Positions 14,331-50,228 are shown, numbered from the stretch's first letter. The stretch: 52,274 nucleotides of DNA from Candidatus Micrarchaeota archaeon (GCA_018304385.1 JAGVWJ010000012.1:1-52274), one strand, 5' to 3'. Translations and numbers: made by a program. Notes: generated by a model not told the origin, from the letters alone.

Positions 14331-14331
14331 G

Positions 14332-27426: not shown

Positions 27427-27431
27427 ATTTG

Positions 27432-28178: not shown

Positions 28179-28223
28179 ATGATAGTTATAAGATTTTGAA
28201 CGAATCCAAAATTTGGTGGAAAA

Positions 28224-29432: not shown

Positions 29433-29442
29433 TAGGATAAAC

Positions 29443-29991: not shown

Positions 29992-29996
29992 TATAA

Positions 29997-30974
29997 ATGA
30001 TTTTATCTAGAACTCCTTTACGCGTTTCCTTTTTTGGTGGCGGGACGGATTTTGAGGATTATTATAAACTTGACCATGGATGCGTCCTAACCAGCACCAT
30101 TGACAAGTATATATATCTGATGGTAAATAGAAAATTCGACAGGACTATCCAGCTCAATTACAAAATAACGGAGATTGTCAGTTCGATTGATGAGATAAGA
30201 CATCCGACCATAAGGGAAGGTATGCGACTGGTTGGCATAAACAAGGAATTCGAGCTTAGCGCAATTGCAGATGTACCTGCTCATGGAACTGGCCTTGGCT
30301 CATCCAGCAGTTTCATAGTGGGGGCGCTTAATGCAATGCACACCTATAAGAAAGAAAATGTAGATGCTGAACAGCTTGCCACAGAGGCATGCAAGATAGA
30401 AATTGATGTTTTGAAGGAGCCAATAGGAAAGCAGGACCAGTACATTGCTGCATATGGCGGATTTAGGTTTATCCGGTTCAGCAGGGACGGAACTGTAACA
30501 GTAACCAAAATAAATGCATCTGAAGAAACAATAGGCAGATTATACAAAAAACTAATGTTTTTTTATACAGGTGGCGGCCGAAAGGCCAGTGATATATTAA
30601 CTACTCAAAAGCGAAATATAAAAGATAAAATCGAAACACTTAATAAAATGCGTCAGATAGCTAATAAAATGCATAAACAGCTTGATAATAAAGTAATTGA
30701 CGGATTCGGCGAAGCCTTAAATGATTCCTGGAAATTAAAACGATCCCTTGCGGATAAGATCAGCAACGATATTATAGACGCATATTATGAAAAAGCTATG
30801 ATGGCCGGCGCAAGCGGTGGAAAGATTTTAGGCGCAGGTGGCAGCGGATTTCTCATGTTTTATTGTGAAGAAGAAAAGCAATCCGTAGTACGCAAGGCAT
30901 TAAGCAATTTAAGAGAAGTGTGTTTTAAATTCGAGGAAGAAGGAACTAAAATAATATATAATGACACAGGATAA
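29997..30974 (+). CDS. hddA: D-glycero-alpha-D-manno-heptose 7-phosphate kinase (GHMP family)
   Basis: RTPLRVSFFGGGTD, GTGLGSSSS, GKQDQY and GGKILGAGGSG motifs. Confidence 0.9.
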   Translation: MILSRTPLRVSFFGGGTDFEDYYKLDHGCVLTSTIDKYIYLMVNRKFDRTIQLNYKITEIVSSIDEIRHPTIREGMRLVGINKEFELSAIADVPAHGTGLGSSSSFIVGALNAMHTYKKENVDAEQLATEACKIEIDVLKEPIGKQDQYIAAYGGFRFIRFSRDGTVTVTKINASEETIGRLYKKLMFFYTGGGRKASDILTTQKRNIKDKIETLNKMRQIANKMHKQLDNKVIDGFGEALNDSWKLKRSLADKISNDIIDAYYEKAMMAGASGGKILGAGGSGFLMFYCEEEKQSVVRKALSNLREVCFKFEEEGTKIIYNDTG

Positions 30975-30990
30975 CAAGAGGGGGGCAAAG

Positions 30991-31773
30991 ATGGTATTGA
31001 ATAAAATAAAAAGGGGCATTGACCTGGCCAATATTATAAAAAACTGGCCTGGGCTTTTCATATCAACATTGGATAAAAAAAGAAAACTGTTCGAACTGAA
31101 ACTTAGGAACGGGCTAAAATTCAGGATAAGAACTGGATATTCTTCAGACCACAATATATTCAGGGAAGTATTCATAGAAAAGATATACACTCCAGATAGT
31201 TTACCATTAGGTGATGGCACGGTTATTGATGTAGGGGCGCATATCGGGTTTTTCTCCATAATGGCATCACAAAAGGCAAAGGAAGTAATTGCTGTAGAAC
31301 CTACTGATTCTAATGGAAAGCTGCTTGAAGAGAATATCCTACTGAATAACAAAAAAAACATAACAGTAGTCAGAAAGGCGCTTGGTAAAGGAAAGGAAAA
31401 AAGAAAGATGTATATAAATAAAACTGCTTATCACACCGGATTGCACAGTTTCTACAAAAGCATCGCCAGCCAGGAATTTGAAAAAGACCTGGAAGAAATA
31501 GAAACAACATCGATTGGAATAGACCAGCTTTTCAAGGATTATAATATAAAAAGCTGTGAATTTCTGAAGATGGATTGTGAAGGCGCTGAGTATGATATAC
31601 TTCTAAATGCATCAGATAAAACGCTTGGAAAAATCAAAAAAATTGCAATATCCACGCATGATGTTGAAAAATACAATGGACAGATCCTGGCGGATTTCCT
31701 TGTCAAAAAAGGCTTTAAGGTATGGTTTGCACCTGGTGGCCACCCGCTTTATGCGAAAAATAAGAATATATAG
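30991..31773 (+). CDS. FkbM family methyltransferase
   Basis: VIDVGAHIG, AVEP and LKMDCEGAEY motifs. Confidence 0.9.
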   Translation: MVLNKIKRGIDLANIIKNWPGLFISTLDKKRKLFELKLRNGLKFRIRTGYSSDHNIFREVFIEKIYTPDSLPLGDGTVIDVGAHIGFFSIMASQKAKEVIAVEPTDSNGKLLEENILLNNKKNITVVRKALGKGKEKRKMYINKTAYHTGLHSFYKSIASQEFEKDLEEIETTSIGIDQLFKDYNIKSCEFLKMDCEGAEYDILLNASDKTLGKIKKIAISTHDVEKYNGQILADFLVKKGFKVWFAPGGHPLYAKNKNI

Positions 31774-31787
31774 AAAAAAGATGGTAT

Positions 31788-32741
31788 ATGATGCCTTTTG
31801 AATCCAAAAATATCATTGTAACCGGTGGTGCAGGCTTCATAGGCAGCCACATTGTCGATAGGTTATTGGCGCAAAAAGCAAATGTGACTGTAATCGACAA
31901 TATGCACACTGGACAGCAGAAGGTTGTTGAGGGACACAGGAAAAACAAAAACTATAAACTTGCTAGAGTGGATATTTTCAAAGAGCCTGCTCTTTTGATA
32001 AAGGAGATGAAAAACATTGATTTCGTTTTTCATGCTGCTGCAAACGCAGACATACGCAATGGAATAAAAAATACACGCGTTGATTTGGAACAAAATACAA
32101 TCGCAACATGCAATGTCCTGGAGGCAATGCGCCTAAATGACGTAAAGGGTATTTGTTTTACCTCTTCTGCAGCAGTCTATGGCGAGCAGAAGTCAATACC
32201 AACACCAGAAGATACGCCAAAAGTACAAAACTCGCTTTACGGCGCGAGCAAACTTGCATGCGAGGCATTGATAGAGGCATTTTCATTTTATTATGGCTTT
32301 AGACATTATATGTATAGGTTCGTATCCATAGTTGGCGAACGCTACCCGCATGGCGTGGTGATAGATTTTGTAAATAAACTAAAAAAAGATCCGAAAAAAC
32401 TCGAGATACTTGGAAATGGAAGGCAAAAAAAGTCTTTCCTTTATATAAATGACTGTATAAAGGGCATATTCACTGGCATCGAAAGATCAAAGAATCAAAA
32501 TAATGTATTCAATCTTGGCCATGATAATGTTATATTAATCGATAAAGTAGCGGATTTAGTTATAAACGGGATGGGGCTGGAAAAAGTCGAACGATATTAT
32601 ACTGGTGGTGAAGTGGGCTGGCTTGGAGACCAGCCAATGGTACTTCTATCAACTGAACGAATAAAAGCGCTTGGATGGAAGCCCGAAATAAGCATTGAAG
32701 ATGGAATAAGAAGAACTGTTAAATTTTTGCTGGAAAAATGA
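31788..32741 (+). CDS. NAD-dependent epimerase/dehydratase
   Basis: [15 protein letters not shown] and SLYGASK motifs. Confidence 0.9.
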   Translation: MMPFESKNIIVTGGAGFIGSHIVDRLLAQKANVTVIDNMHTGQQKVVEGHRKNKNYKLARVDIFKEPALLIKEMKNIDFVFHAAANADIRNGIKNTRVDLEQNTIATCNVLEAMRLNDVKGICFTSSAAVYGEQKSIPTPEDTPKVQNSLYGASKLACEALIEAFSFYYGFRHYMYRFVSIVGERYPHGVVIDFVNKLKKDPKKLEILGNGRQKKSFLYINDCIKGIFTGIERSKNQNNVFNLGHDNVILIDKVADLVINGMGLEKVERYYTGGEVGWLGDQPMVLLSTERIKALGWKPEISIEDGIRRTVKFLLEK

Positions 32742-32753
32742 TGAGGGGAAAAA

Positions 32754-33782
32754 ATGAAAATTCTTATTACTGGCGGTGCTGGTTTGGTAGGAAGTGAATG
32801 CTGCAAACTATTCGCCAGCGACGGCTGGGGGGTAATCAGTATTGACAATTACACGAGAGGAAAACTTTTCGGTAAAGAAAGCGAAACAAGCACGACTATG
32901 ATGGACCTAAGAAAGAAGTATTCCATAGAGCATCATGAGATAGATATAAGGGATGAAAAAATTATAGAAGTAGTTAAAAAAGTTGATGCGGTCATACATA
33001 CTGCGGCACAACCGAGCCACCCAAAATCAATCGAAATACCAATGGAGGACTTCCAAATAAACGCATACGGAACGCTTTTTCTTCTTGAGGCGGTGAGGAA
33101 ATATAATAAAGAGATTCCTTTTGTTTTTTGTAGTACTAATAAGGTTTACGGCGAGGCGCCAAACTATTTTTCTTATAAAAAAATTGGAAAACGATTTGAA
33201 CCAATCGACCCAACCTTAAAGGATGGTTTTGATGAAAGCCTGCGCATAGACCAAATGATGCATACGCCTTTCGGTGTTTCAAAGGCTGCCGCTGACTTAT
33301 ACTGCCAGGAATATGCGCACCTCTATGGATTGAAAACTGGGATTTTCAGAATGGGCTGCATAACAGGTGGAGCTGCAAAGGCCGCAGAAATGCACAACTG
33401 GGAACCGTTTTTCATCAAAAAGGCACTTACTGGTGAGGAATTAACAATTTTTGGGCATGCAGGTTATCAGGTTCGGGATGTTATACATGCTGCAGATCTG
33501 GCAAAATTATTCTTCGAATTTATTAAGAAACCAAGAGCAGGAGAGGTATATAACATCGGCGGTGCAAGAAAAAATTCCATCTCGCTAATAGAAGCAATCG
33601 ATCTTATTGAGGATATCACCAACAAAAAAATAAAATATAAAATGGGCCCGGAAAGAGAGGCTGATCATATATGGTGGATATCCAACATAAACAAGGCGCG
33701 CGATCATTATCCAGCTTGGAACATAAGAATTGGATTAAAAGAAGTCTTTGAAGATATTTATAAAGCACTTGGAAAAAAATAG
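32754..33782 (+). CDS. NAD-dependent epimerase (CDP-paratose 2-epimerase-like)
   Basis: AAQPSH, STNKVYG, HTPFGVSK and FRMGCITG motifs. Confidence 0.8.
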   Translation: MKILITGGAGLVGSECCKLFASDGWGVISIDNYTRGKLFGKESETSTTMMDLRKKYSIEHHEIDIRDEKIIEVVKKVDAVIHTAAQPSHPKSIEIPMEDFQINAYGTLFLLEAVRKYNKEIPFVFCSTNKVYGEAPNYFSYKKIGKRFEPIDPTLKDGFDESLRIDQMMHTPFGVSKAAADLYCQEYAHLYGLKTGIFRMGCITGGAAKAAEMHNWEPFFIKKALTGEELTIFGHAGYQVRDVIHAADLAKLFFEFIKKPRAGEVYNIGGARKNSISLIEAIDLIEDITNKKIKYKMGPEREADHIWWISNINKARDHYPAWNIRIGLKEVFEDIYKALGKK

Positions 33783-36806: not shown

Positions 36807-38045
36807 ATGCCAAGAATATTAGTAGTTGTCGGTTTAGGATATGTTGGATTACCTCTTGCAATTAAATTCGCTAAACATTTTTCTATTATCGGTTATGATA
36901 TAAACAAAGATCGCATTGTGGAATTACAAAAAGGATTTGACAAGAATAACGATGTAACTAATAGCGAATTTAAAGAAGTTTCAAAAAATATTAATTTCAC
37001 AACTGACGCAAAGGAAATCGCAAAAGGCGATATTGTCATTATCTCAGTTCCAACTCCGCTCAAACCAAATAATAATCCTGATTTAAGCTATTTGGAGAGC
37101 GCTTCAAAAACAGTTGGTAAGCATATGAAAAAAGGTGCGCTAATTATTTATGAATCAACCGTTTATCCAGGATGCACAGAAGAATTCTGTCTGCCGATTC
37201 TTGAAAAAGAAAGTAAAATGAAATTAAGGGAATTTTATTTAGGATACTCTCCAGAGCGCATGAATCCAGGCGATAAAGAACATACTGTTGATAAAATTAC
37301 AAAATTAATATCTGCTTCGCATCCCGAAGCGCTTGAAAAAATGAAGGAAATTTATAGTAAAATCACAAAAACTTATGCTATGTCAAATATAAAAGCTGCA
37401 GAGGCTGCAAAAATTATTGAAAACGTGCAGCGTGATATAAATATGGCACTATTCAACGAGCTGAGCATGCTTTTTGACAAACTTGGATTGGATAGTGAAG
37501 AAGTGTTCGCAGGCGCTGCAACTAAATGGAATTTTATTAAATTTAGACCAGGTTTGGTTGGTGGTTATTGTATTCCGGTTAATCCACATTATCTAGCTTA
37601 TAAGGCAGCACTGATAGGTTTTCATCCAGAGCTTATCCTCGCAGGTAGAAAAACAAATGAAAACATGCCGATTTTTATCGCGAAAAAAGCAGTACAGGTG
37701 GTTGGGAAGAGCGCAAAAACACTTATCTTGGGAGCTTCTTATAAAGAAAATGTTGCGGAGCTGCGAAGCAGCAGGGTGAAAAATCTAGTCGAAGCACTGC
37801 AAAAGGAAGGTGCAAAATCTATCTCGATTTACGATCCAATTATTAAAGAGGATAGTATTTTTGGATTGAAAAATGAGGAACCAAGAGAAAAATTTGACTT
37901 AATTATTTATGCGGTTGCACACGATGCTTTTGGTAAAATGGATTACAGCTCATGGTTTAGTGCCCATGGCTACGTAATCGATATCCCAAAAAAACTAGAT
38001 CGCAGGACATTAGAAAAACAGGGGTTTCGGTACTGGGCACCATAA
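36807..38045 (+). CDS. UDP-N-acetylhexosamine 6-dehydrogenase (WbpO/TviB-like)
   Basis: GLGYVGLPLA, ESTVYPG, YSPER and GGYCIPVNP motifs. Confidence 0.9.
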   Translation: MPRILVVVGLGYVGLPLAIKFAKHFSIIGYDINKDRIVELQKGFDKNNDVTNSEFKEVSKNINFTTDAKEIAKGDIVIISVPTPLKPNNNPDLSYLESASKTVGKHMKKGALIIYESTVYPGCTEEFCLPILEKESKMKLREFYLGYSPERMNPGDKEHTVDKITKLISASHPEALEKMKEIYSKITKTYAMSNIKAAEAAKIIENVQRDINMALFNELSMLFDKLGLDSEEVFAGAATKWNFIKFRPGLVGGYCIPVNPHYLAYKAALIGFHPELILAGRKTNENMPIFIAKKAVQVVGKSAKTLILGASYKENVAELRSSRVKNLVEALQKEGAKSISIYDPIIKEDSIFGLKNEEPREKFDLIIYAVAHDAFGKMDYSSWFSAHGYVIDIPKKLDRRTLEKQGFRYWAP

Positions 38046-38081: not shown

Positions 38082-39305
38082 ATGATGCATATGAATATTG
38101 ATGCTATAAGAAAAATAGATTACTGGATTGGAATACCAATATGCTTCTTTTTATCGATTATAAATAATTTTAGTAAGCTTTTTAGAAATAAAAAAAACAT
38201 GGATAACCAAAAGAAGTTTTTGTTTATTCAACTATCAGAAATGGGAAGCACCGTTATTGCTTATTCTGCTATGGAATATATTAAGAAAAAATATCAAAAG
38301 GCGCAACTGTATTTCTTAATATTCAAAAGAAACAAAGAAGGGATAGATATTTTAAATATAATAAACCCAAAGAACGTTATAACAATAAGAGACACCTCTT
38401 TCATAGAATTAACTATTGACACATTATTTGCTATCTGGAGGTTGAGATGCGAACGAATTGATGTTTCATTTGATTTGGAATTGTTCTCTAGATATTCTGC
38501 AATATTGAACTATTTGATAGGTGCTAAAACCAGGGTTGGATTTTATAAATTCGCAGCAGAGGGACTTTATCGTGGTAATCTACAAACCCACAATGTGACC
38601 TATAATAATTACTATCATATGAGCCAAAATTTTATGGCACTGGTTAAGGCATTAGAAGGCCCGGATGAAATACCTCTCCTAAAACAAACCATTGACAAAA
38701 TCAAAGTTCCAAAAATAATCAGTAAAAAATCTGATAAAGAACTTATGTGGAAGAGACTAAGATTACTAAAGCCGTCAATTAACAAAAAAAACAGGATAAT
38801 ATTGCTAAACCCAGGCACAAGCAAACTACTCCCATTAAGAAAATGGCCTATAAGTTATTATGCCAAATTAGCAAAAAATTTACTGATGGACAAGGATACA
38901 AACATCATAGTAACTGGGCTTATAGAAGATAAAATTTATGCTGACTATATACGCAATTTCACTGGTGACAGGTGTATTGACTTTACCGGGAAGACCAAAA
39001 CATTGAAGGAGTTAATTGACTTATACAATGTTGCAGATATCCTGATAACCAATGATTCCGGCCCTGCGCATTTCTCTGCGCTAACCCCAATCAAAACAAT
39101 TGTATTTTATGGCCCGGAAACACCTGTCTTATATTCCCCATTAGGCAATAACTACACTACCTTGTACTCGAAATTTGCTTGTTCGCCTTGTGTATCGGCA
39201 TATAATCATAGAAAGAGTCCCTGCACAAATAACAGGTGCCTGCAGGCAATAAAACCAGAGGCTGTTATTAAATTAGTACAAAATAATTTTAAACAAAATC
39301 TTTAG
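38082..39305 (+). CDS. GT9 family glycosyltransferase (ADP-heptose heptosyltransferase-like) no. 1
   Basis: QLSEMGS, LNPG....RKWP, ITNDSGPAHF and CSPC...N motifs. Confidence 0.9.
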   Translation: MMHMNIDAIRKIDYWIGIPICFFLSIINNFSKLFRNKKNMDNQKKFLFIQLSEMGSTVIAYSAMEYIKKKYQKAQLYFLIFKRNKEGIDILNIINPKNVITIRDTSFIELTIDTLFAIWRLRCERIDVSFDLELFSRYSAILNYLIGAKTRVGFYKFAAEGLYRGNLQTHNVTYNNYYHMSQNFMALVKALEGPDEIPLLKQTIDKIKVPKIISKKSDKELMWKRLRLLKPSINKKNRIILLNPGTSKLLPLRKWPISYYAKLAKNLLMDKDTNIIVTGLIEDKIYADYIRNFTGDRCIDFTGKTKTLKELIDLYNVADILITNDSGPAHFSALTPIKTIVFYGPETPVLYSPLGNNYTTLYSKFACSPCVSAYNHRKSPCTNNRCLQAIKPEAVIKLVQNNFKQNL

Positions 39306-41628
39306 GATAAAAAATTAAGAATATCATTCCGCTAATACTAATAAGAAACAAGCTTTTTTCCCATAAAGGCAATTCATATCTCAAAAGTATATCATTTCCA
39401 TTTTTATTTTCAACTATCATAAGGCCAACATCTGATTCTACTACTGGCACTTGGCCAAATCCATTTTGATATGCGTGCCAATTTGGAAAATATTCTTCTT
39501 TCACAAATAGATACTTTGATCTAGGATTTTTTATCAGAATTTCTTGGGGGTTGGGCCTCACGTAATCTAGTTTCTTCGCCACCCTCCAGTCATAATTTTG
39601 TTCTGTAGGTACAAAGTCAAACCCATCTATAAAACTATTTTCTAAAGATATAACAAACGCGCAATTACTCACCTGTATTGCCTCTTTAAATCTACATTCC
39701 TTGCAAATATCAACCCTATCTAAAAAATTCATACCTCCATCGTTGCAGGTATCAACAAAGATCCTGGTAACATCGGTCATTTTAAACAGTTTAAATGCCT
39801 CTTGCATGGTTGTCTTATTGGGCAACCCCCAATCATTACCATATATATCAGTTAATCTGTTAAGATATATGTCCGTATGCTGGCCTTGCACAAAACCAAG
39901 TCCATTAGTCGAAATACCGGAAATTGCAAGCAAAGGATGTAAAGTAGTCCCGTAGGTTCCATATGTTATTACCCTTCCCTCAAACCTACCAAAAACTTTC
40001 TTCAGATAATCGATACTGTCTATTAAGCCCTTATCTGTAACATACCTGATCGTTTTTTCATGCGTGATAAAGAGATAATGCAGGATAAAAATAACTAGTA
40101 TTAGCAGCACCATAAATTTACCAACCAAGTTAGGGTTAGATGAAATCTTATCAAAAAAATTAACTATAATGATAGCATAAAAAAATGCAAAGAAAGGCAT
40201 CATCCTGTCTATGCCAATTATTGTCTTAGATATAGTATCGCTGATGTTTGCACCTAAGAATATAACCAACCAGGTCAAAATAAAGATGAATGTAAAGGTA
40301 TGAAGTTCGTTTCTCTTATTTTTTACCGCCTCACGACCCAGAATAATCAACCCAAGGGTTACAAAAATACCATAAAATAAACCAACGTTCAAGTTATTCG
40401 ACCCTGTGAATTTTATTTCCGGTTCGCTGAAAAGCGGAAGTAGCAGCAGATTGATCGCGTCAACGCTGCCTAATTCAAATGTTATTTTTGATATGTGACC
40501 GGAATAGATCACGATTGGAACAACGAAAAAAGCGACAAGGAAAAAAAATATAAACACCACTTTCATTGGAAATTTCAACGCTCCGAACAGCGCGCCAATG
40601 CCAGTAACGCTTTTGCTTTTAAAGGAATAAACAAGCCATGATAGCATAAGAAAGGACAATAGAACTAGACCGACACTGGGGTGGGACAAAAATGCGTAAG
40701 CAATCAGCAGCGCGATTGGCAGCAGATACTTATTATCATGCACCTGGTAGGTCCTTATTATAAAGTATAATGCAACAGACATGGCAGCAAATGCAGAGAA
40801 CAACTTATAATTGCCAACATACGCGGAATTCAATGTTAGTACCGGGTTTATTATAAATATAATGGTGGATATAAATGATAAATAGGGATCTTTTAGTATG
40901 GCCTTGTTCAACAAAAATACGCCAAGGGCCATTAATATTATAAAAAACAGAAAAATAAGGTTAAAGGCGTTTCTTAAATCTCCATGGGATATTAGCTGGT
41001 ATGTTCCCCCAAAAATAAATGATTGCGGAGGGTCAAATGTAAACATAGGGTAGCCAAGCTGTTCCTTGTCGTACCAGCTAAAAATTATTTCATAATATTC
41101 TAAAGAAGTTTTAACGAAATGAATCCTGGCTAAATACGACATGGCATCTGTTTTCTGGATGTATGTTGTACTTAAAAATCCCTGATAAGCATATAGGGAA
41201 ACTATCAGGATTAGCAAAACAAACATAAGATTCCTGTTTGCCAGAGGTTCTAAATTAATTAGACGATTAAGGTCTGATTTTATTTTTTCTCTATAGAAGA
41301 TAAATGCAAATAGTGTTGGAAAAATTAAAAGCAGAAGATAGATAAAAGGCAATGGTAAGGGAAGACCGAAAACCGACAATAAATAAAGAACATTGGTAAA
41401 GAGTGCTGCCAACGGAAGAGAAAGTAGCATGCGCTCTAATAAACCAAGATTCCATTTATAAGTCAAAAGAAAGTAAGGGAGCAGAAAAATTACCAACCAC
41501 GCAACTTCATAAAAAAAGTCCATTATAAAGAATAGAATAATCAGAATAAGTAGTACGTTCATTAACCCTAAATTCTTATTTATAAAAACGGCAAAATTTT
41601 CAAACATAAGAATCGTTTCAATTAACAT
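39289..41628 (-). CDS. Large multi-pass membrane protein, GT-C/YfhO/PTPS-related-like, with extracytoplasmic C-terminal domain
   Basis: More than 10 hydrophobic segments, loop KTDAMSYLARI, C-terminal KEEYFPNWHAY and GLMIV..LLRY motifs. Confidence 0.65.
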   Translation of the reverse strand: MLIETILMFENFAVFINKNLGLMNVLLILIILFFIMDFFYEVAWLVIFLLPYFLLTYKWNLGLLERMLLSLPLAALFTNVLYLLSVFGLPLPLPFIYLLLLIFPTLFAFIFYREKIKSDLNRLINLEPLANRNLMFVLLILIVSLYAYQGFLSTTYIQKTDAMSYLARIHFVKTSLEYYEIIFSWYDKEQLGYPMFTFDPPQSFIFGGTYQLISHGDLRNAFNLIFLFFIILMALGVFLLNKAILKDPYLSFISTIIFIINPVLTLNSAYVGNYKLFSAFAAMSVALYFIIRTYQVHDNKYLLPIALLIAYAFLSHPSVGLVLLSFLMLSWLVYSFKSKSVTGIGALFGALKFPMKVVFIFFFLVAFFVVPIVIYSGHISKITFELGSVDAINLLLLPLFSEPEIKFTGSNNLNVGLFYGIFVTLGLIILGREAVKNKRNELHTFTFIFILTWLVIFLGANISDTISKTIIGIDRMMPFFAFFYAIIIVNFFDKISSNPNLVGKFMVLLILVIFILHYLFITHEKTIRYVTDKGLIDSIDYLKKVFGRFEGRVITYGTYGTTLHPLLAISGISTNGLGFVQGQHTDIYLNRLTDIYGNDWGLPNKTTMQEAFKLFKMTDVTRIFVDTCNDGGMNFLDRVDICKECRFKEAIQVSNCAFVISLENSFIDGFDFVPTEQNYDWRVAKKLDYVRPNPQEILIKNPRSKYLFVKEEYFPNWHAYQNGFGQVPVVESDVGLMIVENKNGNDILLRYELPLWEKSLFLISISGMIFLIFYPKDFV

Positions 41629-43546
41629 TTACTTCATAAATGATCGCACATTCACCCAAGCATGCAATCTGTTCGCCTTGCTGTTGAATACCAATAAACT
41701 TTACTGGTTTTAAGTATTTATTGAGACCTACATCCCAAGGATAAAGAATATTCGAACCTTCAACAGTTATTGCACCTGTAACCAACATATCATATTTTGG
41801 ATAAACATCTAATGTATACGGATCCAAAGAAGTATGCATTTCAACGTATCTAACTCCATTTTTATCCAGATAACTACGATAATCTGGTTTATCTTTAACC
41901 ATAAGAGGGTCAAAGAATCTAGCAATTTGGTTATTTTGAACTATAAACTCGTGCCCAAACCAATCATTTGTCCATAATAGATATTTTACATTGTATTTTC
42001 TAAGAAGCTCTTTTCTTACAGCATCATTTTTTCCATAAAGCATGACCGCTGCATCTAATGCACGCTGATTCATATCTGAATAGACTGGTGCATGCGTTCT
42101 CCTGTATGTAACTACTTTTCTACCACTGAGCGCATTCAGCATAAACCCCCCTTCATTGGTTGTAAGGAAAACATCGCTTAGGCTAGTATCTGATAAAATC
42201 CAGGATTTTATCTCTTTATGCATTGAGGATAGATCGCTTCGACCAGCAGAAACCCAATTACCTGGGCCATTAGCACCACCTTTATTCTTTTCAAGATCTG
42301 CAAAATGATTATAGAAAAATGCAATTGCAAGCAAAACTAATAATAACTCGGTTATTGCAATACCTTTTTCACTAGAACCGATCTTTATCAAGTTATCTAA
42401 CTTTATCCTCTCTTTGATAAAAATTAAAGCAAATAATATTTCTATAGGCTCGAGCGGAAATTGCATCATTTGGAATAAATGCCCTGGTGCGAGGTGCGTA
42501 TGTAAAAGATTAAATAAAATCAAATGATGAGATAAACCAATCAATGCAGCTACTAAAACAAGAAAAACAAAACGATAAAAGAGATTAATATTACGATTCA
42601 ATACGATGGCTATGGCACCAATTAACTCCAGAATTGAAATCATGGAAGAAACAACATTCTCTAGTTTATCAAAATTTATTGCAAAAAAAGTACCACGTAA
42701 TTCATCTGTTATTGACTTTATCTGTAAATCAAATTTCGTATAATCTGGCCAACCATATATTTGTAGATCATTGGGCGTTGCACCTTTGTAAACAAAAAGT
42801 GGTGCATACCAATAGACTAAAGACAAAAGAAAACCTAAGGCAAAAACCTTTACAAATGGTATTATTTCTTTTATAAAATCCGAAGAACGAATGAAAGCGA
42901 AACTTTTCGATTTCTTATAATTTTTATATGTTAGATCCAGCATTATAACGCCAAACAAAATAATACTTGCAAAAAATAGCTGCGTACTTGATAAATGCGC
43001 GAGCGCTATAGCAATTGCTAAAAATATAAAACGATTTTGAGTTTGTTTTTCCAGAAACAAAAACCATGCAAGAATCATTAAAGGCGAAGTAACGAAAAAT
43101 GCGAATAATGTATATTTGTATATCGGATAGGCAGAAAGGAAAATTAGAATGACTGATAGGATTAACAATCTGTTTTCAGTAAAGCGAGTAATAGTTAAAT
43201 AAACAATGATTGCACTAACGAAAATTAATGGAAGTGACGAATATATAATTCCAAACAACGGATCCACGCCCGTAATTTTCGAAAGAATTACAACATATGA
43301 ATGATAAAGCCAGGGAGCCCATTGGATCTCTCCGAGCATTTGCCCATTTTCAAAAATAGATCCGCCATAATAAATATGATAAATGCTCCCTAAGTGATTA
43401 TAATAATCGCCTCCATAAAGCGGACTTGGTAGTTGCTTAAACTGACTTAAAAAATTATAGTTGACAAGAGCAACAACTAGCGCTAAAAGAAGTACATACT
43501 TAAAAGTATCCGAACTTAACTCGCGTTTAATAAAATTTTTTACCAT
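41618..43546 (-). CDS. Multi-pass membrane protein, GT-C/AftA-like glycosyltransferase candidate
   Basis: First loop SPLYGGDYYNHLG, about 10 TM segments, C-terminal DVFLTTNEGGFMLNALSGRKVV. Confidence 0.6.
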   Translation of the reverse strand: MVKNFIKRELSSDTFKYVLLLALVVALVNYNFLSQFKQLPSPLYGGDYYNHLGSIYHIYYGGSIFENGQMLGEIQWAPWLYHSYVVILSKITGVDPLFGIIYSSLPLIFVSAIIVYLTITRFTENRLLILSVILIFLSAYPIYKYTLFAFFVTSPLMILAWFLFLEKQTQNRFIFLAIAIALAHLSSTQLFFASIILFGVIMLDLTYKNYKKSKSFAFIRSSDFIKEIIPFVKVFALGFLLSLVYWYAPLFVYKGATPNDLQIYGWPDYTKFDLQIKSITDELRGTFFAINFDKLENVVSSMISILELIGAIAIVLNRNINLFYRFVFLVLVAALIGLSHHLILFNLLHTHLAPGHLFQMMQFPLEPIEILFALIFIKERIKLDNLIKIGSSEKGIAITELLLVLLAIAFFYNHFADLEKNKGGANGPGNWVSAGRSDLSSMHKEIKSWILSDTSLSDVFLTTNEGGFMLNALSGRKVVTYRRTHAPVYSDMNQRALDAAVMLYGKNDAVRKELLRKYNVKYLLWTNDWFGHEFIVQNNQIARFFDPLMVKDKPDYRSYLDKNGVRYVEMHTSLDPYTLDVYPKYDMLVTGAITVEGSNILYPWDVGLNKYLKPVKFIGIQQQGEQIACLGECAIIYEVNVN

Positions 43547-43550
43547 GATT

Positions 43551-44517
43551 TCACTTACTCAAAAGCGCAGCGGCCAGTAAAGGAATCATTAACTCATGCC
43601 TACCAATTAGATAATAACCTTTTCCTATCCCTTTTGTTGGTCGTTCAACAACATTGCGCAGTGGGCGATACTGATAGTTATAATCAAGAACAACTGTTAT
43701 AAAATCCTTTAACTTTTTGCCTTGATGAAATTTAGAAATTTCATCAATTGTGTCGGCGTTTTTTTGCCCTGCCGACACAGCTTGGTTCTGGCTTATTGCA
43801 ATTGCCTTTAGAAATATCTCAGGCAAAAGAACGTTTGAACCAGCATTAATATAGGCGCCACCACTAATCTCACTTACCTCATTACAAAATAATTTGAAAT
43901 CATCATATGTTGCTTTGCCTGTTGCTTCACCACTCATAGATGGATGCATATGCACTATGTCAGTTCCAAGCGCAACATGAACAGTAACTGGAATGTTAAG
44001 CCTTGCTGCTGCACAAAGTATGCTGTATTTCGCATATTTTGGTTTTGTTTCCTCTAAAAGGCGCTTTAAGCCTGCACCAAAACCAACGTTCGCATCTGCC
44101 GCAATCTTTGCAGCCTTATTAATAAATTCTGCTGTTTCTTTTGCAACACCAAATTCGCCTTCATGCAAGCTTTCACCAACATCTTCTGAGCTTTTACCTG
44201 CTAAAGCGAATTCAACATCATGTATTGCGCTAGCGCCATTTACGGCGATAGACGTAATAAAACCATTTTCCATTAACTGAATTAAAAGTGGATTTAAACC
44301 AAATTTTATTACATGAGCGCCAATACCCCAGATAATCTTCCTTTTAGCTGCTTTTGCAGCCTTTAAATGGCTTATAATTGCCTTAAAATCACTACCGCTA
44401 TAGATATTAGGAATACTAGCTAATTCCACTAAATGGCGCTGCAAAATCTTTAACATTGCTTAGGCTTGACCGATCATAAAGCGAATATGTTTTGATCTTT
44501 GAGAAATCAACTGACAT
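43551..44517 (-). pseudogene. Deoxyhypusine-synthase-fold protein of unknown function (GSU2086-like), frameshifted near 44420-44435
   Basis: The N-terminus MSVDFSKIKTYSLYDRSSLSNVKDFAAPF starts at ATG 44517 (GGTG SD) and stops at 44416. The body (LASIPNIYSG..GIGAHVIK..NGASAIHDVE) continues in the frame of ORF 43551..44456. Confidence 0.72.
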
Positions 44518-44606
44518 AGAAACACCAAAAATAACAATATAAAATACTAATGCTTAAAATAGTTAGGATAGACAAATTTATATTAATAGGCTTTATGGGG
44601 AGTAAA

Positions 44607-45773
44607 ATGAATTCTAAAACCGTATCACGGAGAAGAGTAGACAGCGTTAGCCTAATCCGTATTATGGACAAGGGCGCAGGAAGCTTATTGTGTCATATGC
44701 TGGGTATTCTGGGCAAGAAAAGAGAGATACCAAAGGAGATAAAGAAAATAGCACTAATCAAGTTCTTTGGATTTGGGAACGTAATAATGATATCTCCATT
44801 TTTTAAGCTATTAAAGCAGATATTTCCGAATGCTAAGCTGATTTTGCTAACGCTAACTGGGAATAAAAAATTAGCCAGCTTTTACAAAACAATAGACAAA
44901 GTAATTGATATAAATCTCTCAAATCCAGTTCTTATCCCATCTAAAATCCTAAATGCAATAGATAAATTAAGAAATGAAGATATTGATGTGATTATTGATT
45001 TTGAACAGTATTCACGAACTTCTGCTATTATATCTTTTTTATCTAATGCGCGTTTTGGCGTTGGTTTTTCTTTAGATAAGAATCCTAGATGTTTATTGTA
45101 TGATAAAACAATTGAATGTAATGAAAATAAACATATGATTAAGCAGTTTCACAAACTAGTATCAATAATTACTACTAAGCGAAATGAGGATATTGAATTA
45201 GAGAAAATTGAATATACAAACAACGATATTAAATTTGTGGATAATTTAATTAACGGAGTTATGAGAAAAATTGTTGTATTGCACGTTGGTAATGGACCAA
45301 ATGCACCTGAAAAACGTTGGCCAACTGAAAGATTTGTTGAACTTGCGAAGCGATTGGATGATAGAAAACTGAGGATCGCAATAATCGGATCTGACCAGGA
45401 TAAAAAAGAAGTTGAAATATTTAAAAGCAAGTTCAATAGTGAGTATATAGATGTCTATAATAGATTAACAATACCACAACTCGCATATTTTTTAACTAAA
45501 GCAAATGTATTTGTTTCTGCAGATACTGGGCCTGCGCATCTTGCAGCTTCGGTTGATGTACCTTCAGTAGTTTTATATGGACCAAGCACTCCTACTATAT
45601 ATGGTTCATGGGGAAAAAACGTACACCACTTATATACAAATCTGTGGTGCAGCCCTTGTGGTACCAATAAAAACTCTCACGAATATATATGTATAAATAG
45701 GATTTATCAAAAGTGTATGCTAGATATAAGTGTAAATAAAGTAGAGAAAATGGTATTGGAGATAATGAAATGA
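44607..45773 (+). CDS. GT9 family glycosyltransferase (heptosyltransferase-like) no. 2
   Basis: [22 protein letters not shown] and CSPC motifs; GGGGAG SD before 44607. Confidence 0.9.
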
Positions 45774-46327
45774 CAAATATGAAACAACGAATAAACGAAC
45801 ATATTGAAACGTGCAAAAAAATAACAGATAGCGAAAGCGATATTATCAAAGCAGCAGAAATAATAACGAACGCATATATAAAAGGCGGGAAACTTTTGAT
45901 ATGTGGAAATGGTGGAAGCGCTGCAGATGCGCAACATTTTGCTGGTGAACTTGTAGGCAAATTTATGAAAGAACGAAAGGCATTGCCAGCAATTGCAATA
46001 ACAACAAATACTTCTAATATGACTGCAATAGGGAATGATTATGAATTTGAAAAAATATTTGAACGCGAAGTTGAGGCACTTGGAAAAAAAGGAGATGTTT
46101 TATTTACAATTAGTACAAGCGGAAATTCTGAAAACGTAATAAGAGCTGTTAAAAAAGCAAATGAAATCGGTATGAACGCTATCGCGCTTTTAGGAAAAGG
46201 CGGCGGAAAATTAAAAGGATTATGTAACTGCGAAATAATTGTTCCTTCAAATGACACGCAGCGCGTGCAGGAGGCACACATAATGATTATTCATTTAATA
46301 TGCGAACTTATTGAGGCGGATTTATGA
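45770..46327 (+). CDS. gmhA: D-sedoheptulose 7-phosphate isomerase
   Basis: [24 protein letters not shown] and RVQEAH motifs. Confidence 0.96.
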
Positions 46328-47271
46328 AAATAAAATTCAAAAACTCGAACATTTTGCTAATTGGAGATATAATAATCGATCATTATATTTATGGAACAGT
46401 TGACAGGATCTGCCCTGAAGCACCAGTGCCAGTACTTAATTGCAAATCAGAAGAAATGTTTCTTGGTGGGGCAGGCATTGTTTTAACGAATTTATTACAT
46501 CTTGGCGCTAAAACAAATTTGGTTTCAGTTGCCGGTGATGATGAAGAGGCTGAAAAACTCGAGAAATTATTTAAAAGTGCCGGTGCCTCATTCCAGAACG
46601 TAGCAATAGAAAATGGGAGAAAAACAACAATTAAAACTAGATGCGTTGCAACATCCCCATTCTGGCAGATGTTAATGCGATTTGATAAGGAGGTCGTATA
46701 CCCTATATCAAATACAACAGAACAGGAAATTATCTTAAAATTAGACACTTTATTAAAAAATGCGGATTTAGTTGTAATATCTGATTACAAAAAAGGATTG
46801 CTTACGCCGACATTGCGCGAAGCGATAATTACTAAGGCAAAAAGCAACAATAGAAAAATAATCGTAGACAGTAAAGGTTTCGTATCGGATTATAAAGGTG
46901 CAGATATTATCGCGCCAAATAGAGTAGAATTGTGTGAACATTTTGGCGCAGCTCCAACTAATGATGATGGAATTATTAGGCAGTTTGCTCAAAAACTTGC
47001 TAGGCAAATGAATTGTAAATTAGTTGTAAAACGCTCGGAAAAAGGAATATTATGGATAGATAATGGCAAGGAAGGAAACGTTCCGAGTGTTGCGAAGAAA
47101 ATAGTTAATGTATCTGGTGCAGGCGACGTCTTTATTGCTTCGTTAGCATTGGCAACAGCTTCGGACTATACGCTTGAGGATGCTGTTAAAATAGCTAACT
47201 TTGCCGCTGGTATTGCTATTGGAAGAACAAGACCACATGTTACATTAGAGGACTTTAAGAATTTTGAATGA
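46324..47271 (+). CDS. rfaE1: D-glycero-beta-D-manno-heptose 7-phosphate kinase (HldE/RfaE domain I, PfkB family)
   Basis: GDIIIDHY..G...[20 protein letters not shown] and VSGAGD motifs. Confidence 0.93.
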
Positions 47272-47279
47272 GGATTTGA

Positions 47280-48272
47280 ATGAAACGCGCAGTATTTTTA
47301 GATAGAGACGGCGTAATTGTAAAAGACACGGGATACACACATAAAATAGAGGATTTAGAAATAATAGATGGTGCAGCAGAAGCAATTAAAACTTTTAATA
47401 AAGCAGACTTCTTGGTAATTATCATTTCAAATCAATCTGGCATAGCAAGAGGATTATATAGAGAAGAGAATTTGGAAATATTTAACCAAGAAATGATAAA
47501 AAGACTAAAAGTATTGGGAGCCAAAATTGATAGCATTTATTTCTGTCCCCACCATCCAACAGAAGCAAATGTAGAGAGATATAACCGTGTTTGCGAATGT
47601 AGAAAACCTGCACCTGGCATGATATTGAAAGCGTCCAAAGAACATAACATTGATTTAAAACATTCTTGGATGATTGGCGATCGAGAAAGCGATATTAAAG
47701 CAGGGAAAACTGCAGGATGTAAAACGATATTAATAGGTAGAGATGCTAAGAACTTAAATGAGGCGGCTAAAATGATAAATGAAAGTTGTAGCCCGGTGCT
47801 AAATAGAAAAATAAGGGATAAGTATAATATTATGGAATTGGTTCAAGAACTCAGAAAAAACGGGAAAAAAATAGTATTTACAAATGGATGTTTTGACATA
47901 CTTCACTATGGCCACGTTTATTATCTAAGCGAAGCTAAAAAACTCGGAGATGTGCTGATAGTTGGACTTAACTCCGACAACTCAATAAAGAAAATTAAGG
48001 GCAAAACAAGGCCAATAAATGGTGAAGCTGTAAGATTGGCGGTAATAATAGCACTTGAAGCAGTTGATTACGCCATAGTTTTTAACGAGGAAACACCACT
48101 AAATCTTATTGAGATGATCAAACCTAATACCCATGTTAAAGGTGGTGACTGGAAAGACAAAAAGATTCCTGAAAAAAAAGCAGTAGAGAAAAACGGTGGA
48201 AGAATAGAGTTTATTGATTATTTAAACGGATACTCCACAACAAGCATAATAGAAAAAATAAAAAAAGGTTAA
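47280..48272 (+). CDS. gmhB: Fusion: GmhB heptose-1,7-bisphosphate phosphatase + HldE domain II heptose-1-phosphate adenylyltransferase
   Basis: N-terminal FLDRDG, SNQSGIARG, CPHHP, CECRKP and IGDR motifs; C-terminal TNGCFDILHYGH, GLNSD, KGGDW and GYSTT motifs. Confidence 0.93.
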   Translation: MKRAVFLDRDGVIVKDTGYTHKIEDLEIIDGAAEAIKTFNKADFLVIIISNQSGIARGLYREENLEIFNQEMIKRLKVLGAKIDSIYFCPHHPTEANVERYNRVCECRKPAPGMILKASKEHNIDLKHSWMIGDRESDIKAGKTAGCKTILIGRDAKNLNEAAKMINESCSPVLNRKIRDKYNIMELVQELRKNGKKIVFTNGCFDILHYGHVYYLSEAKKLGDVLIVGLNSDNSIKKIKGKTRPINGEAVRLAVIIALEAVDYAIVFNEETPLNLIEMIKPNTHVKGGDWKDKKIPEKKAVEKNGGRIEFIDYLNGYSTTSIIEKIKKG

Positions 48273-48275: not shown

Positions 48276-48929
48276 ATGGGTGTAACTATTCTCCTCCCAA
48301 CATATAATGAAGAAGAAAATATAGCAAAGATGATAGATAGCATTAGAAGTATCTCTAAAAAATACAAGATTACTGTGGTAGACAGCAACTCAACAGATAA
48401 TACACAAAAAATCGCAAAGTTAATGGGTGCACAAGTAATAGCAATAAATAAAAGAGGAAAGGGACTCGCAGTAAAACACGCATTGCAAAGGATAACTGAG
48501 GATTACTTAATCATAATGGATTCTGACCTTACTTACCCTGTTAAAAAAATTCCGCAATTTTTAGAATTACTAAAGAATTTTGATGTTGCTATTGGCTCAA
48601 GATTTAGAGGTAACATTGAAAATGGAGCTATGACTCCGATTAATAAATTTGGAAATATCTTCCTTACTATGCTGGCCAGTTTGACTTATGGCAAGAATAT
48701 AAGTGATGTGTGCTCTGGTATGTGGGGTTTTACGAAAAAGGCATACAAAAAAATAAGTATAAATGCACCTCATTTTGAATTAGAGGTTAATCTTTTTGTA
48801 CAATGTGTTAAAAATGGTTTACGATTTTGTGAAATCCCCATTGAATACAAAAAAAGAGGGGGCAAGACAAAACTAAGGGTAAGCGATGGGCTTAGGATTG
48901 CTGGCTATTTAGTTAGAAGGAGGTTTTAG
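48276..48929 (+). CDS. DPM1-like GT2 (polyprenol-phosphate glycosyltransferase candidate)
   Basis: PTYNEE, VDSNSTD, GKG, MDSDLTY, GSRF and DVCSG motifs. Confidence 0.88.
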   Translation: MGVTILLPTYNEEENIAKMIDSIRSISKKYKITVVDSNSTDNTQKIAKLMGAQVIAINKRGKGLAVKHALQRITEDYLIIMDSDLTYPVKKIPQFLELLKNFDVAIGSRFRGNIENGAMTPINKFGNIFLTMLASLTYGKNISDVCSGMWGFTKKAYKKISINAPHFELEVNLFVQCVKNGLRFCEIPIEYKKRGGKTKLRVSDGLRIAGYLVRRRF

Positions 48930-50195
48930 CTACCAGCAAACCCCTTCGTAATTTTTATCACTCTTTTTCTTTAGAACGTATCTGCCATCAAAAACGATTT
49001 TATCTTTGTATAATTTTTCATCATTAAACTCTTCCCATTCAGTAAGAATAAAAATAATATCTGAAAAAGCAAGTGCCCCCTTTAGCGAACTCGCATATTC
49101 TATTTTATCTCCAAATATTTTTTTCGCATTTTCATTTGCAATTGGATCATAAGCCGCGAGCTTACAGCTACTAGCTAACAGCTCATTGATTACTTTTATG
49201 CTAGGCGCTTCACGCATATCATCGCTATCTGGCTTGAACGCTAAACCAAGGATCGTAATTTTTTTATCTTTTAGTGTACCTAACTTCTTTTTTGCTAATT
49301 CAACAATCTTTAATGGCTGGTTTTCATTCACGCCTATAACCGCGTTTAGTATCTTTGGACTAACATCAACATTTTTTGCTGTGGATATTAGAGATTTGAC
49401 ATCTTTTGGAAAACAACTGCCTCCATATCCAATTCCAGCATTCAAAAACGCCCGCCCAATTCTCTTATCAATGCCAATTGCATTCATTACATCGTAAACA
49501 TCAATATTCAGCGCTTTGCAGATATTGCCAATTTCATTTGAGAAACTTATTTTCGTAGCAAGAAACGCATTGCTTGTGTATTTTATCATCTCTGCAGTTC
49601 GTAAATCAGTGCTTAAAATAGGACATTTAAAATTTTTATATAACCCGTAGACTTTTTCATAAGATTTATCATCATTTGCACCTATAATAATCCTGTCTGG
49701 ATTCATAAAATCATAAACTGCGTTGCCTTCGCGTAAAAACTCGGGGTTCATTGCGATTCCAAAATCCTTTCCGCATTTTTTTCCGCTTTCTTTTTCTAAA
49801 ATATGGATTAGGCTTTCAGTAGTTTTTGGTGGAACTGTACTTTTTACTACAACAACACAATAATCTTTTTTCGATTTCAGCTTTTTTCCAATATCTCGCG
49901 CAGCATTTTCAATATATTTTAGATCAGTACTTCCATCCTCGCGCGAAGGCGTGCCAACGCAAATAAAAATAACTTCTGCTGTTTGTGGCAACTGGTTTGT
50001 GGCATTTAGCTTTTTTCCAGCATGGTTCTTCAACAAATTCTCAAGTCCTTTTTCAAATATAGGAGCTTTCGCTTTATTAAGCATGTCAACTTTTGATTTG
50101 TCAATATCTATGCAAGTGACGTTATTGCCAAGCTCTGCGAGGCATGCGCCTGTAACAAGACCAACATAGCCAGTGCCAACTATAGTAATGTTCAT
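48930..50195 (-). CDS. ugd: UDP-glucose/GDP-mannose 6-dehydrogenase
   Basis: GTGYVGL, CVGTP, KSTVPP, NPEFLREG, GYGGSCFPKD and FKPDSDDMRE motifs. Confidence 0.94.
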   Translation of the reverse strand: MNITIVGTGYVGLVTGACLAELGNNVTCIDIDKSKVDMLNKAKAPIFEKGLENLLKNHAGKKLNATNQLPQTAEVIFICVGTPSREDGSTDLKYIENAARDIGKKLKSKKDYCVVVVKSTVPPKTTESLIHILEKESGKKCGKDFGIAMNPEFLREGNAVYDFMNPDRIIIGANDDKSYEKVYGLYKNFKCPILSTDLRTAEMIKYTSNAFLATKISFSNEIGNICKALNIDVYDVMNAIGIDKRIGRAFLNAGIGYGGSCFPKDVKSLISTAKNVDVSPKILNAVIGVNENQPLKIVELAKKKLGTLKDKKITILGLAFKPDSDDMREAPSIKVINELLASSCKLAAYDPIANENAKKIFGDKIEYASSLKGALAFSDIIFILTEWEEFNDEKLYKDKIVFDGRYVLKKKSDKNYEGVCW

Positions 50196-50228
50196 AAAAA
50201 TCATTTAGATAAATAGATTAATAACTTA

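Follow-up and report, generated by a model that had tools for sequence, protein, structure and literature searches.

The gene cluster analyzed here occupies positions 38082–48272 of a 52,274-nucleotide stretch of DNA (the window) from Candidatus Micrarchaeota archaeon (GCA_018304385.1, JAGVWJ010000012.1:1-52274), and it combines genes for the synthesis of ADP-heptose with two glycosyltransferases (GTs) of family 9 (GT9a and GT9b), two polytopic membrane proteins (MP779 and MP642) and a member of the GSU2086 family. The window is the entire contig C29 of genome bin G000 (1.53 Mb, 65 contigs, 89% complete, 0.9% contamination). Among described systems its first counterpart is the bacterial ADP-heptose system for lipopolysaccharide (LPS). 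The same four enzyme activities are encoded here, with matches above or near the cut-offs of the corresponding models and with motifs intact, and GT9b aligns end to end with heptosyltransferase I (HepI) and keeps its Lys and D-T-G-x-x-H motif. The differences are that the host is an archaeon in which no genes for lipid A or 3-deoxy-D-manno-octulosonic acid (Kdo) were found and the acceptor cannot be Kdo2-lipid A, that the two domains of HldE are encoded apart and the adenylyltransferase is joined to GmhB, that no HldD scores above its cut-off, and that Asp13 of HepI is replaced by Asn or Ser.

A second heptose route, the GDP-D-glycero-alpha-D-manno-heptose pathway, consists of GmhA, HddA, GmhB and HddC and is associated with the Aneurinibacillus S-layer glycan and the Campylobacter capsule. 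The window holds something similar, a SIS protein followed by an HddA-like GHMP kinase, with nucleotidyltransferases (NTP-transferases), short-chain dehydrogenases/reductases (SDRs) and methyltransferases nearby, but its scores are far below the equivalog cut-offs, there is no dedicated second GmhB, and the module is separate from the operon for the beta-type heptose. The ArnC/ArnT systems of two-step extracytoplasmic glycosylation (likewise GtrB/GtrC and DPM1/PMT) provide a third comparison, in that many Micrarchaeota group a GT2 polyprenyl-phosphate-sugar synthase, a GT-C transferase and two tailoring enzymes for sugar nucleotides, namely a dehydrogenase and an SDR, around MP642; MP642, however, belongs to no Pfam family, and in fold it comes closest to DPY19, AftA and the oligosaccharyltransferases rather than to ArnT.

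Heptose has also been reported from archaea. The N-glycan of Thermoplasma acidophilum includes a heptose that is elsewhere a component of LPS (PMC11407970), Iplasma carries a complete ADP-heptose cluster proposed to serve S-layer glycosylation (Yelton et al. 2013; PMC3750248), and archaeal heptose enzymes are active in vitro (Tang et al. 2024, via PMC11461863). The likeness to the present locus is that of an archaeal heptose pathway situated among glycosylation genes and proposed for surface-protein glycans, whereas the locus described here belongs to a DPANN lineage, has a different gene architecture and is known from its genes alone. The suggestion of the initial annotation that the system is undescribed is not supported, as both the occurrence of heptose in the N-glycan of an archaeon and the presence of ADP-heptose clusters among archaeal glycosylation genes had already been published. 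Most likely, the cell uses these genes to decorate its own surface glycans, as reported for other archaea, which makes the locus a variation on a known theme; nothing in it amounts to a new type of envelope. The features that look new, in that we found no description of them, are the GT9 clades without the catalytic Asp, a genus-specific GmhB::HldC fusion and the imported GSU2086 gene; the portions of the archaeal heptose literature available to us make no mention of a GSU2086 accessory gene or of non-Asp GT9 subtypes.

An ADP-heptose operon headed by GT9b

Taken as a whole, we consider it fairly probable that the heptose genes are part of a surface-glycan island and feed a dolichol-linked glycan through GT9b, and that the GT-C proteins beside them are not specific for heptose. 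At the center of this explanation is a five-gene operon on the plus strand, GT9b-gmhA-hldE-I-gmhB::hldE-II-GT2, whose genes are joined by two 4-bp overlaps followed by gaps of 8 and 3 bp; the first overlap is that of GT9b with gmhA, and the GT2 gene starts 3 bp after hldE-II. The operon and the GSU2086 gene are transcribed divergently. Its first gene encodes GT9b (44550–45773; GT9 "GN" subtype; PF01075, E 5e-35), followed by the sedoheptulose-7-phosphate isomerase GmhA (45770–46327; TIGR00441, 219.5 bits, cut-off 209.45). The HldE domain I-type heptose-7-phosphate kinase (46324–47271), which is HldA-like and stands as a gene of its own, has TIGR02198 as its best model (283 bits, E 2e-84, against an equivalog cut-off of 345), matches PfkB at E 6e-34 and contains the kinase motif GAGD. 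The next gene (47280–48272) encodes GmhB (residues 1–170) fused to an HldE domain II/HldC adenylyltransferase (residues 187–329). The GmhB half exceeds the cut-offs of NF006506 (179.5 bits versus 178) and TIGR00213 (167.4 versus 149.6), contains DRDG and matches E. coli GmhB structures in the PDB, among them 3l8e (E 5e-38), as well as 5x9q; the HldE-II half scores 205.4 bits with TIGR02199 (cut-off 181.5) and has HxGH as well as YLNGYSTT, a C-terminal G-x-S-T-T motif. This fusion is limited to the host genus, and elsewhere the two are separate, adjacent genes. All genes of the initial annotation were recovered at their positions in an open reading frame (ORF) map with Pfam and NCBIfam scans, and the enzyme set for ADP-heptose that it proposed is borne out, with GmhA, GmhB and HldE-II above their cut-offs, HldE-I below the cut-off of its best model, and the catalytic motifs DRDG, GAGD and HxGH intact.

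From these identities, the operon would convert sedoheptulose-7-phosphate to ADP-D-glycero-beta-D-manno-heptose by isomerization, 1-O-phosphorylation, 7-dephosphorylation and adenylylation, in that order. An Arg at position -5 has been linked to promiscuity toward CDP- and UDP-heptose by Tang et al. 2024 (via PMC11461863). This STTR5 signature was not seen in HldE-II, which has no conserved Arg at -5, a tentative result because the position was counted from a secondary source, and ADP-heptose is therefore taken as the default product. No HldD, the ADP-heptose 6-epimerase on which formation of L,D-heptose depends, was found above cut-off in the genome, in which the best two scores were 163 and 153 bits versus 274.6, and the final sugar may thus be either D,D- or L,D-heptose. 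The second of these is the SDR at 17484–18386 (plus strand; TIGR02197, E 8e-45), for which HldD is the top model by ~50 bits (next model, 102 bits) and whose orthologs adjoin a GT9-HldE cassette in two loci of another genus (L129 and L130). It is a candidate divergent HldD, judged from these sequence matches, and may epimerize ADP-heptose after its synthesis from elsewhere in the island.

The last operon gene encodes a GT2 that resembles AglJ/DPM1-like polyprenyl-phosphate hexose synthases (48276–48929; PF00535, E 2e-29), with matches to TIGR04182 AglJ (E 8e-51) and the NF041391 Dol-P-hexose transferase (Dol-P, dolichol phosphate; E 1.5e-36) that are both below cut-off. It has the same position in G001, which together with G002 represents the same genus as G000 (hereafter the congeners).

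G000 encodes exactly two GT9 proteins, GT9b and GT9a. Over its full length GT9b can be aligned with E. coli HepI/WaaC (2gt1 and 2h1f) and with 3tov (E about 4e-17); it keeps the ADP-heptose-binding Lys (equivalent to Lys192) and has D-T-G-P-A-H, but it has Asn at the position of Asp13, the proposed catalytic base of HepI. GT9b is very probably the heptosyltransferase of the operon, since its gene overlaps gmhA and stands in the operon where related genera have their GE-type GT9.

Absence of LPS genes and the likely acceptor

The initial annotation had noted that Kdo and lipid A genes are missing from the window, and this extends to the genome, as WaaA, LpxA, LpxB, LpxC and KdsA were not found in G000, an absence that is meaningful because the genome is 89% complete. 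The sole match resembling 3-deoxy-D-manno-octulosonate 8-phosphate (KDO8P) synthase scored 125.6 bits versus a cut-off of 314, and we infer that it is the related 3-deoxy-D-arabino-heptulosonate 7-phosphate (DAHP) synthase; the LpxA matches are generic hexapeptide transferases, including a PglD-like gene in the window. A non-LPS acceptor is thus a reasonable inference. To this extent the earlier proposal that the heptose is probably placed on an archaeal protein or lipid glycan is supported.

The best indirect evidence on the acceptor comes from other lineages. In other families of the class, a GT9 together with a GmhA/GmhB/HldC/HldA cassette is located in an island with the oligosaccharyltransferase AglB (L119, L121, L123 and L127), and in L124 and L126 a GT9 directly abuts AglB; in G001 the heptose operon and AglB are ~95 kb apart on the same contig. 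The cassette is thereby tied to protein-glycosylation islands, with nothing LPS-like about it, which bears on the use of nucleoside diphosphate (NDP)-heptoses in archaea, a question left open by Tang et al. 2024. In the mechanism that we propose, GT9b, a soluble GT-B enzyme, would add heptose to a dolichol-phosphate-linked oligosaccharide at the cytoplasmic face of the membrane, after which the heptosylated oligosaccharide would be flipped across it and AglB would link it to proteins of the cell surface. The main alternative fate of the heptose would be a lipid-anchored surface glycan.

The detection of AglB in this lineage depends on the model used. With the Pfam STT3 model there was no match in the genus and only 26 of 61 relatives were matched, while a lineage-specific profile found AglB in 56 of the 61, including both congeners; the AglBs of these relatives are ~1000 aa, carry WWDYG and are under-detected by the Pfam model. 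We consequently discarded the idea that the genus lacks AglB and that a GT-C protein replaces it, since the Pfam result was an artefact of sensitivity. In G000 itself no AglB was identified by the lineage-specific profile (A4) or by tblastn, which is likely due to an assembly gap, given that 56 of 61 relatives have the protein and that the bin is 89% complete.

A number of points nevertheless weigh against the explanation that we favor. These are the missing AglB in G000; the lack of any flippase gene in the window; the indirect nature of the evidence for the acceptor; the score of HldE-I, which is below its equivalog cut-off; the replacement of Asp13 in both GT9b and GT9a, owing to which the chemistry or the acceptor may differ and activity is not guaranteed; the scarcity of heptose genes near members of the GT9a family, whose donor may not be heptose; and the high tetranucleotide distance of the contig, which fits a mobile glycan island and is no proof of bin membership by itself.

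The alternative that survives best, though we regard it as unlikely, is that the heptose goes to a target that AglB does not serve, either a membrane-anchored lipoglycan or glycolipid or, by direct O-heptosylation of the kind carried out by the bacterial autotransporter heptosyltransferases TibC/AAH, a cytoplasmic protein. The absence of AglB from the G000 assembly would be accommodated by such a target, as would the ~95-kb separation of operon and AglB in G001, and divergence of the GT9s is evident from their altered catalytic residue and an extension at the N terminus. Moreover, GT9 enzymes that target proteins exist, as mentioned in PMC11461863. Against this, a phmmer search of PDB chains (E ≤ 0.01) with both GT9s returned only WaaC, WaaF and 3tov, and no TibC/AAH match, the presence of a TibC entry in the search set being unverified; GT9/heptose cassettes lie within AglB islands in related lineages; and the neighbors of the GT9a family include Wzx-type flippases and GT-C proteins, which are typical of lipid-linked glycan assembly. 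Both GT9s probably act on lipid-linked glycans.

Divergent GT9 subtypes

The other GT9 protein, GT9a (38082–39305, plus strand; PF01075, E 9e-24), is a GT-B glycosyltransferase of the "GS" subtype. Its WaaF match in the PDB is confined to the C-terminal donor domain, and its motif EMGST has Ser at the position of Asp13, while the Lys and D-S-G-P-A-H are kept. With the LPS heptosyltransferase models TIGR02193, TIGR02195 and TIGR02201, both GT9s score 20–106 bits versus cut-offs of 135–185. The substitutions follow the clades: in an alignment of 49 GT9 proteins, the Asp13 position was Asp in all 28 ordinary homologs, Asn in all 11 members of the GT9b clade, and Ser in GT9a and its four nearest relatives. 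A tree obtained by a quick search, in which some branches are long, placed GN and GS as sister clades (support 94) and grouped both with the GE clade apart from canonical GT9s (support 82). GT9 genes were present in 31 of the 401 genomes of the phylum, about 8% of those sampled, and most encode the canonical "GD", including those beside AglB; one clade from the family of the host has "GE".

The GT9a family extends well beyond Micrarchaeota. At least 571 relatives were found in metagenomes, mostly bacterial as judged by guanine-plus-cytosine (GC) content, with an E-Q/M-G-S/A motif and always Ser or Ala at the Asp13 position, and HldE was near only two of 80 such metagenome loci (L136–L215). Among ten polytopic neighbors of the family, Pfam identified four GT-Cs, two Wzx-type flippases, one member of the multidrug and toxic compound extrusion (MATE) family and one unrelated AcrB-type pump, with two having no family match. 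The label "ADP-heptose:LPS heptosyltransferase" that some members carry may be a misannotation. The conserved GT9 clades without the catalytic Asp are of wider consequence, as one is large, mostly bacterial and routinely given such a name on weak grounds. From its sequence, GT9a is best described as a GT9-family enzyme of uncertain donor.

It follows that one or both GT9s might not be heptosyltransferases, but might use another nucleotide sugar or be impaired, with ADP-heptose being used by other transferases of the island or in a non-structural role. We judge this to be quite improbable. It would explain why neither protein has the canonical Asp, why both fall far below the LPS heptosyltransferase equivalog cut-offs and why HldE so seldom accompanies the GT9a family, and it gains from G139 and G005, which have alpha-type heptose modules yet in neither of which a GT9 was found. 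It is opposed by the overlap of GT9b with gmhA and its operon position shared with the GE-type GT9, by the retention of the Lys and D-[ST]-G-x-x-H motifs in both proteins, and by the fixation of the substitutions across whole clades, which speaks for selection rather than decay.

Two GT-C membrane proteins

The two membrane proteins between the GT9 genes are encoded on the minus strand, MP779 (779 aa) at 39289–41628 and MP642 (642 aa) at 41618–43546. Neither window protein matched a Pfam family, and neither is AglB/STT3, as PF02516 did not match either of them. The earlier suggestion that they are GT-C-like was substantiated by AlphaFold2 models built from family alignments, for which GT-C enzymes made up the top 25-plus structural matches of both proteins in Foldseek. 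The MP642 model has a predicted local distance difference test (pLDDT) score of 89.8 and matched DPY19 (E 6e-9), AftA (TM-score 0.60), AglB, PglB, STT3 and ArnT; that of MP779 (pLDDT 90.6, predicted TM-score 0.92) matched STT3, AglB and PglB first (E 9e-8), then AftD, AftA, DPY19 and ArnT. MP642 has an invariant Asp47 in its first loop (PLYGGDYY). MP779 has ~15 transmembrane segments and a C-terminal beta-rich domain, and its family is small (68 matches); nine of 25 homologs match PF10131 (PTPS_related), of which MP779 is a distant member.

The distribution of MP642 is that of a native Micrarchaeota GT-C that is not specific for heptose. The family comprises 38 proteins whose named members are from Micrarchaeota or Woesearchaeota, and the gene was detected in 41 of 401 genomes of the phylum and in 26 of 75 genomes of the host's family. 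Its recurrent neighbors, in 12 Micrarchaeota genomes across genera (L021–L032), are a GT2, a TviB-like sugar dehydrogenase and an SDR, and it is present without GmhA in G015, G006 and G044. In G005 and G139 it abuts an alpha-type module of HddA, GmhA, GmhB and an NTP-transferase. Being beside differing sugar-supply modules, the gene therefore tends to collect such modules. In G139 and G044, orthologs of the operon GT2 (57–59% identity) are encoded next to MP642 or in its vicinity; G044 has both genes yet no GmhA, which weakens the idea that the GT2 and MP642 handle heptose. The dehydrogenase in the window is a TviB-like nucleotide-sugar dehydrogenase (36807–38045, plus strand; TIGR03026, 355.7 bits) whose counterpart in G002 abuts MP642 directly; this is the arrangement in the congeners, where no MP779 homolog was found at this position, and GT9a and MP779 form a two-gene insert present in this genome only.

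These observations do not support the single dedicated system for a heptosylated envelope that the initial annotation had assembled from the GT9s, the GT-Cs and a deoxyhypusine synthase (DHS)-like protein. MP642 is native and usually has no GmhA or GT9 nearby, the GT9a–MP779 insert is restricted to this genome and derives its GT9 from a family rarely near heptose genes, and the GSU2086 protein represents a gmhA-linked bacterial family acquired only by this genus. We propose instead that MP642, the GT2, the sugar dehydrogenase and the SDR would form a native ArnC/ArnT-like module, conserved in Micrarchaeota and of interest in its own right, that adds a Dol-P-carried sugar outside the membrane; the donor of MP642 is probably a Dol-P-sugar. 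MP779 and GT9a would be a pair of genes added later and broadly similar in kind.

A second, independent adjacency of a GT9 and a GT-C is present in L135 (G393:C54, 2910–5916), from a distant family of the class, in which a GS-type GT9 adjoins an MP642-family GT-C. An obligatory GT9/GT-C pairing was rejected as a general rule, as MP642 is far more widespread than GT9 and the neighbors of the GT9a family are mixed.

A further explanation, to which we assign a low probability, is that heptosylation takes place outside the membrane: GT9b, GT9a or the GT2 would charge dolichol phosphate with heptose taken from ADP-heptose, and MP642 and MP779 would carry out the extracellular transfer. The clade-wide replacement of the acidic base by Asn or Ser would fit an anionic phosphate acceptor, each GT9 in the window adjoins a GT-C (as does the GS-type GT9 of L135), the gene layout here and in G001 predicts a shared transcript for the GT2 and the heptose genes, and in three genera homologs of MP642 are immediate neighbors of heptose-nucleotide modules. 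However, MP642 and the GT2 ortholog occur in genomes without any GmhA, most MP642 loci carry the dehydrogenase and SDR instead of heptose genes, and the polytopic neighbors of the GT9a family are GT-Cs in only four of ten cases and flippases in two or three, with the rest unrelated or of no known family. In addition, we know of no polyprenyl-phosphate-heptose donor and of no GT-B polyprenyl-phosphate glycosyltransferase.

The GSU2086-family protein

The gene at 43551–44456 (minus strand) encodes a member of NF052581, the GSU2086 family (344.6 bits, cut-off 250). The initial annotation described it as an unknown with a DHS fold; the protein is uncharacterized, as it held, but it belongs to this named family, is not a DHS and shares only a short stretch with that enzyme. 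The family profile aligned with structures of DHS, lysine-oxoglutarate reductase/saccharopine dehydrogenase (LOR/SDH) and ArgZ-C over ~50–90 residues at E 0.003 or worse, corresponding to a short Rossmann-like stretch, and PF01916 (deoxyhypusine synthase) did not match the window protein. That it could be the DHS of the cell was dismissed, as the real DHS is encoded on contig C6 (366 bits) and there is no significant similarity between the two.

The family is extremely conserved, with ~100 columns invariant between archaeal and bacterial members and 43–54% identity of the window protein to the latter. The best 80 loci in named genomes, at 43–50% identity, are all bacterial (Acidobacteriota, Desulfobacterota, Aminicenantes, Nitrospirota and others); in 44 of these 80 (L033–L112), gmhA is directly upstream on the same strand, ~150 bp apart, while HldE or GmhB is near in four and GT9 in none. 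The Geobacter gene, GSU2086, is flanked by hldE and gmhA and shows the same defect in transposon sequencing as these two (PMC5585712). A gmhA-linked family so conserved across many Gram-negative phyla, whose Geobacter mutant behaves like hldE and gmhA mutants, deserves attention beyond this locus. In the phylum, true members were present in two of 401 genomes, both of this genus, and the gene is therefore an import from bacteria that is specific to the genus and was obtained independently of gmhA. Arrival of gmhA together with GSU2086 was rejected, since the GmhA of the window groups with Micrarchaeota and apart from the GSU2086-linked bacterial gmhA genes.

Our best guess is that the protein probably acts on an intermediate of the heptose pathway. 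There is a weak hint that it replaces HldD, in that all five bacterial holders of GSU2086 that were tested lack an HldD above cut-off, a weak test given that only two of 14 control genomes pass. The joint proposition that non-Asp GT9s make Dol-P-heptose, that the GT-Cs heptosylate outside the cell and that GSU2086 is a missing, widespread heptose enzyme has, in our estimation, only a low probability; if true, it would reveal a polyprenyl-phosphate-heptose route unknown in any organism.

Host and origin of the contig

The host is most likely a DPANN archaeon of the Micrarchaeota, the phylum name resting on named homologs. The small-subunit (SSU) rRNA of the bin is archaeal, and on the contig itself no rRNA, tRNA or other RNA-family match and no universal marker protein was found, so that its assignment to the bin is based on synteny, co-location with AglB, a closed genome with a related cassette, the DPANN-only MP642 and the GmhA tree. 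GT9b, gmhA, hldE-I, gmhB::hldE-II and MP642 have the same arrangement in both congeners, at identities of 50–79%. GSU2086 and the GT2 are also present in the G001 cluster, which is on a 184-kb contig together with a Micrarchaeota-type AglB (WWDYG), and G002 has an assembly gap at the expected GSU2086 site. In a second genus, GT9, a canonical bifunctional HldE, GmhA and GmhB are grouped, and one genome of that genus is a single closed 1.57-Mb contig. The archaeal host proposed by the initial annotation is upheld by these findings, and the neighborhood that it advised looking for in other Micrarchaeota is present in both congeners.

In the GmhA tree, the window protein fell inside a Micrarchaeota-only clade that splits according to family taxonomy (f1 clade, 98/92, with the f16 clade as sister) and was separate from all 39 bacterial GmhAs included. 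Because this tree mirrors taxonomy and GT9 is present in about 8% of the genomes sampled, the heptose cassette is old in the Micrarchaeota lineage, and the phylum can be added to the archaea with ADP-heptose genes. The GC content of the contig agrees with the bin, and the tetranucleotide distance of all its segments is at the 93rd–98th percentile, still within the range of the bin; a raised distance is common for glycan islands. A bacterial or chimeric origin of the contig, which would then be an artefact of binning with genes that serve ordinary LPS core synthesis, is very improbable, for although the heptose pathway and GT9 are typically Gram-negative, the GSU2086 family is otherwise bacterial and the tetranucleotide percentiles are high, the cluster is syntenic in two congeners (once beside a Micrarchaeota-type AglB), the related cassette is in a single-contig genome, the MP642 family is DPANN-only, GmhA belongs to an archaeal clade, GC agrees with the bin and lipid A/Kdo genes were not found in it.

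The SSU rRNA gene of G000 (contig C3:28631–30388) has 1758 bases versus the 1478 positions of the model, giving an insertion of ~280 bases that is probably one or more introns.

Remainder of the glycan island

Immediately after the operon, on the minus strand, is an AglM-like UDP-glucose 6-dehydrogenase (48930–50204) that scores above cut-off with TIGR03026 (481 bits) and below the cut-off of 670 with NF041297 AglM (481.8 bits). The alpha-type heptose-like module is upstream of the cluster, at 25742–33782, and consists of an NTP-transferase (25742–26482), a GmhA paralogue (29443–29991, plus strand; TIGR00441, 106 bits, below cut-off) paired with the HddA-like GHMP kinase (29997–30974, plus strand; best match NF049969 HddA, E 2e-42, 145.8 bits versus a cut-off of 600), several SDRs, three FkbM methyltransferases and GT4s, with all scores below the equivalog cut-offs. 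This content suggests that the same island may make a sugar derived from GDP-heptose, possibly deoxygenated or methylated.

Two other blocks are recognizable. At 7035–17390 there is a block of nonulosonic-acid type with a WbuX-like amidotransferase, HisH/HisF-like partners, NeuB, the PglD-like acetyltransferase, a DegT aminotransferase, a CMP-sugar synthetase (CTP_transf_3) and a Gmd-like dehydratase. At 20063–25914, a glucose-1-phosphate cytidylyltransferase, a 4,6-dehydratase, a 3,5-epimerase-like protein, an RmlD-like reductase and a sugar C-methyltransferase (PF08421/PF08484) form a CDP-hexose branch and point to a putative branched or methylated deoxy sugar as its product. Lastly, an ORF of 516 aa with a DUF2341 domain runs off the contig end (3–1550) and, at this edge of the glycan island, may encode a protein that is secreted or sits on the cell surface.

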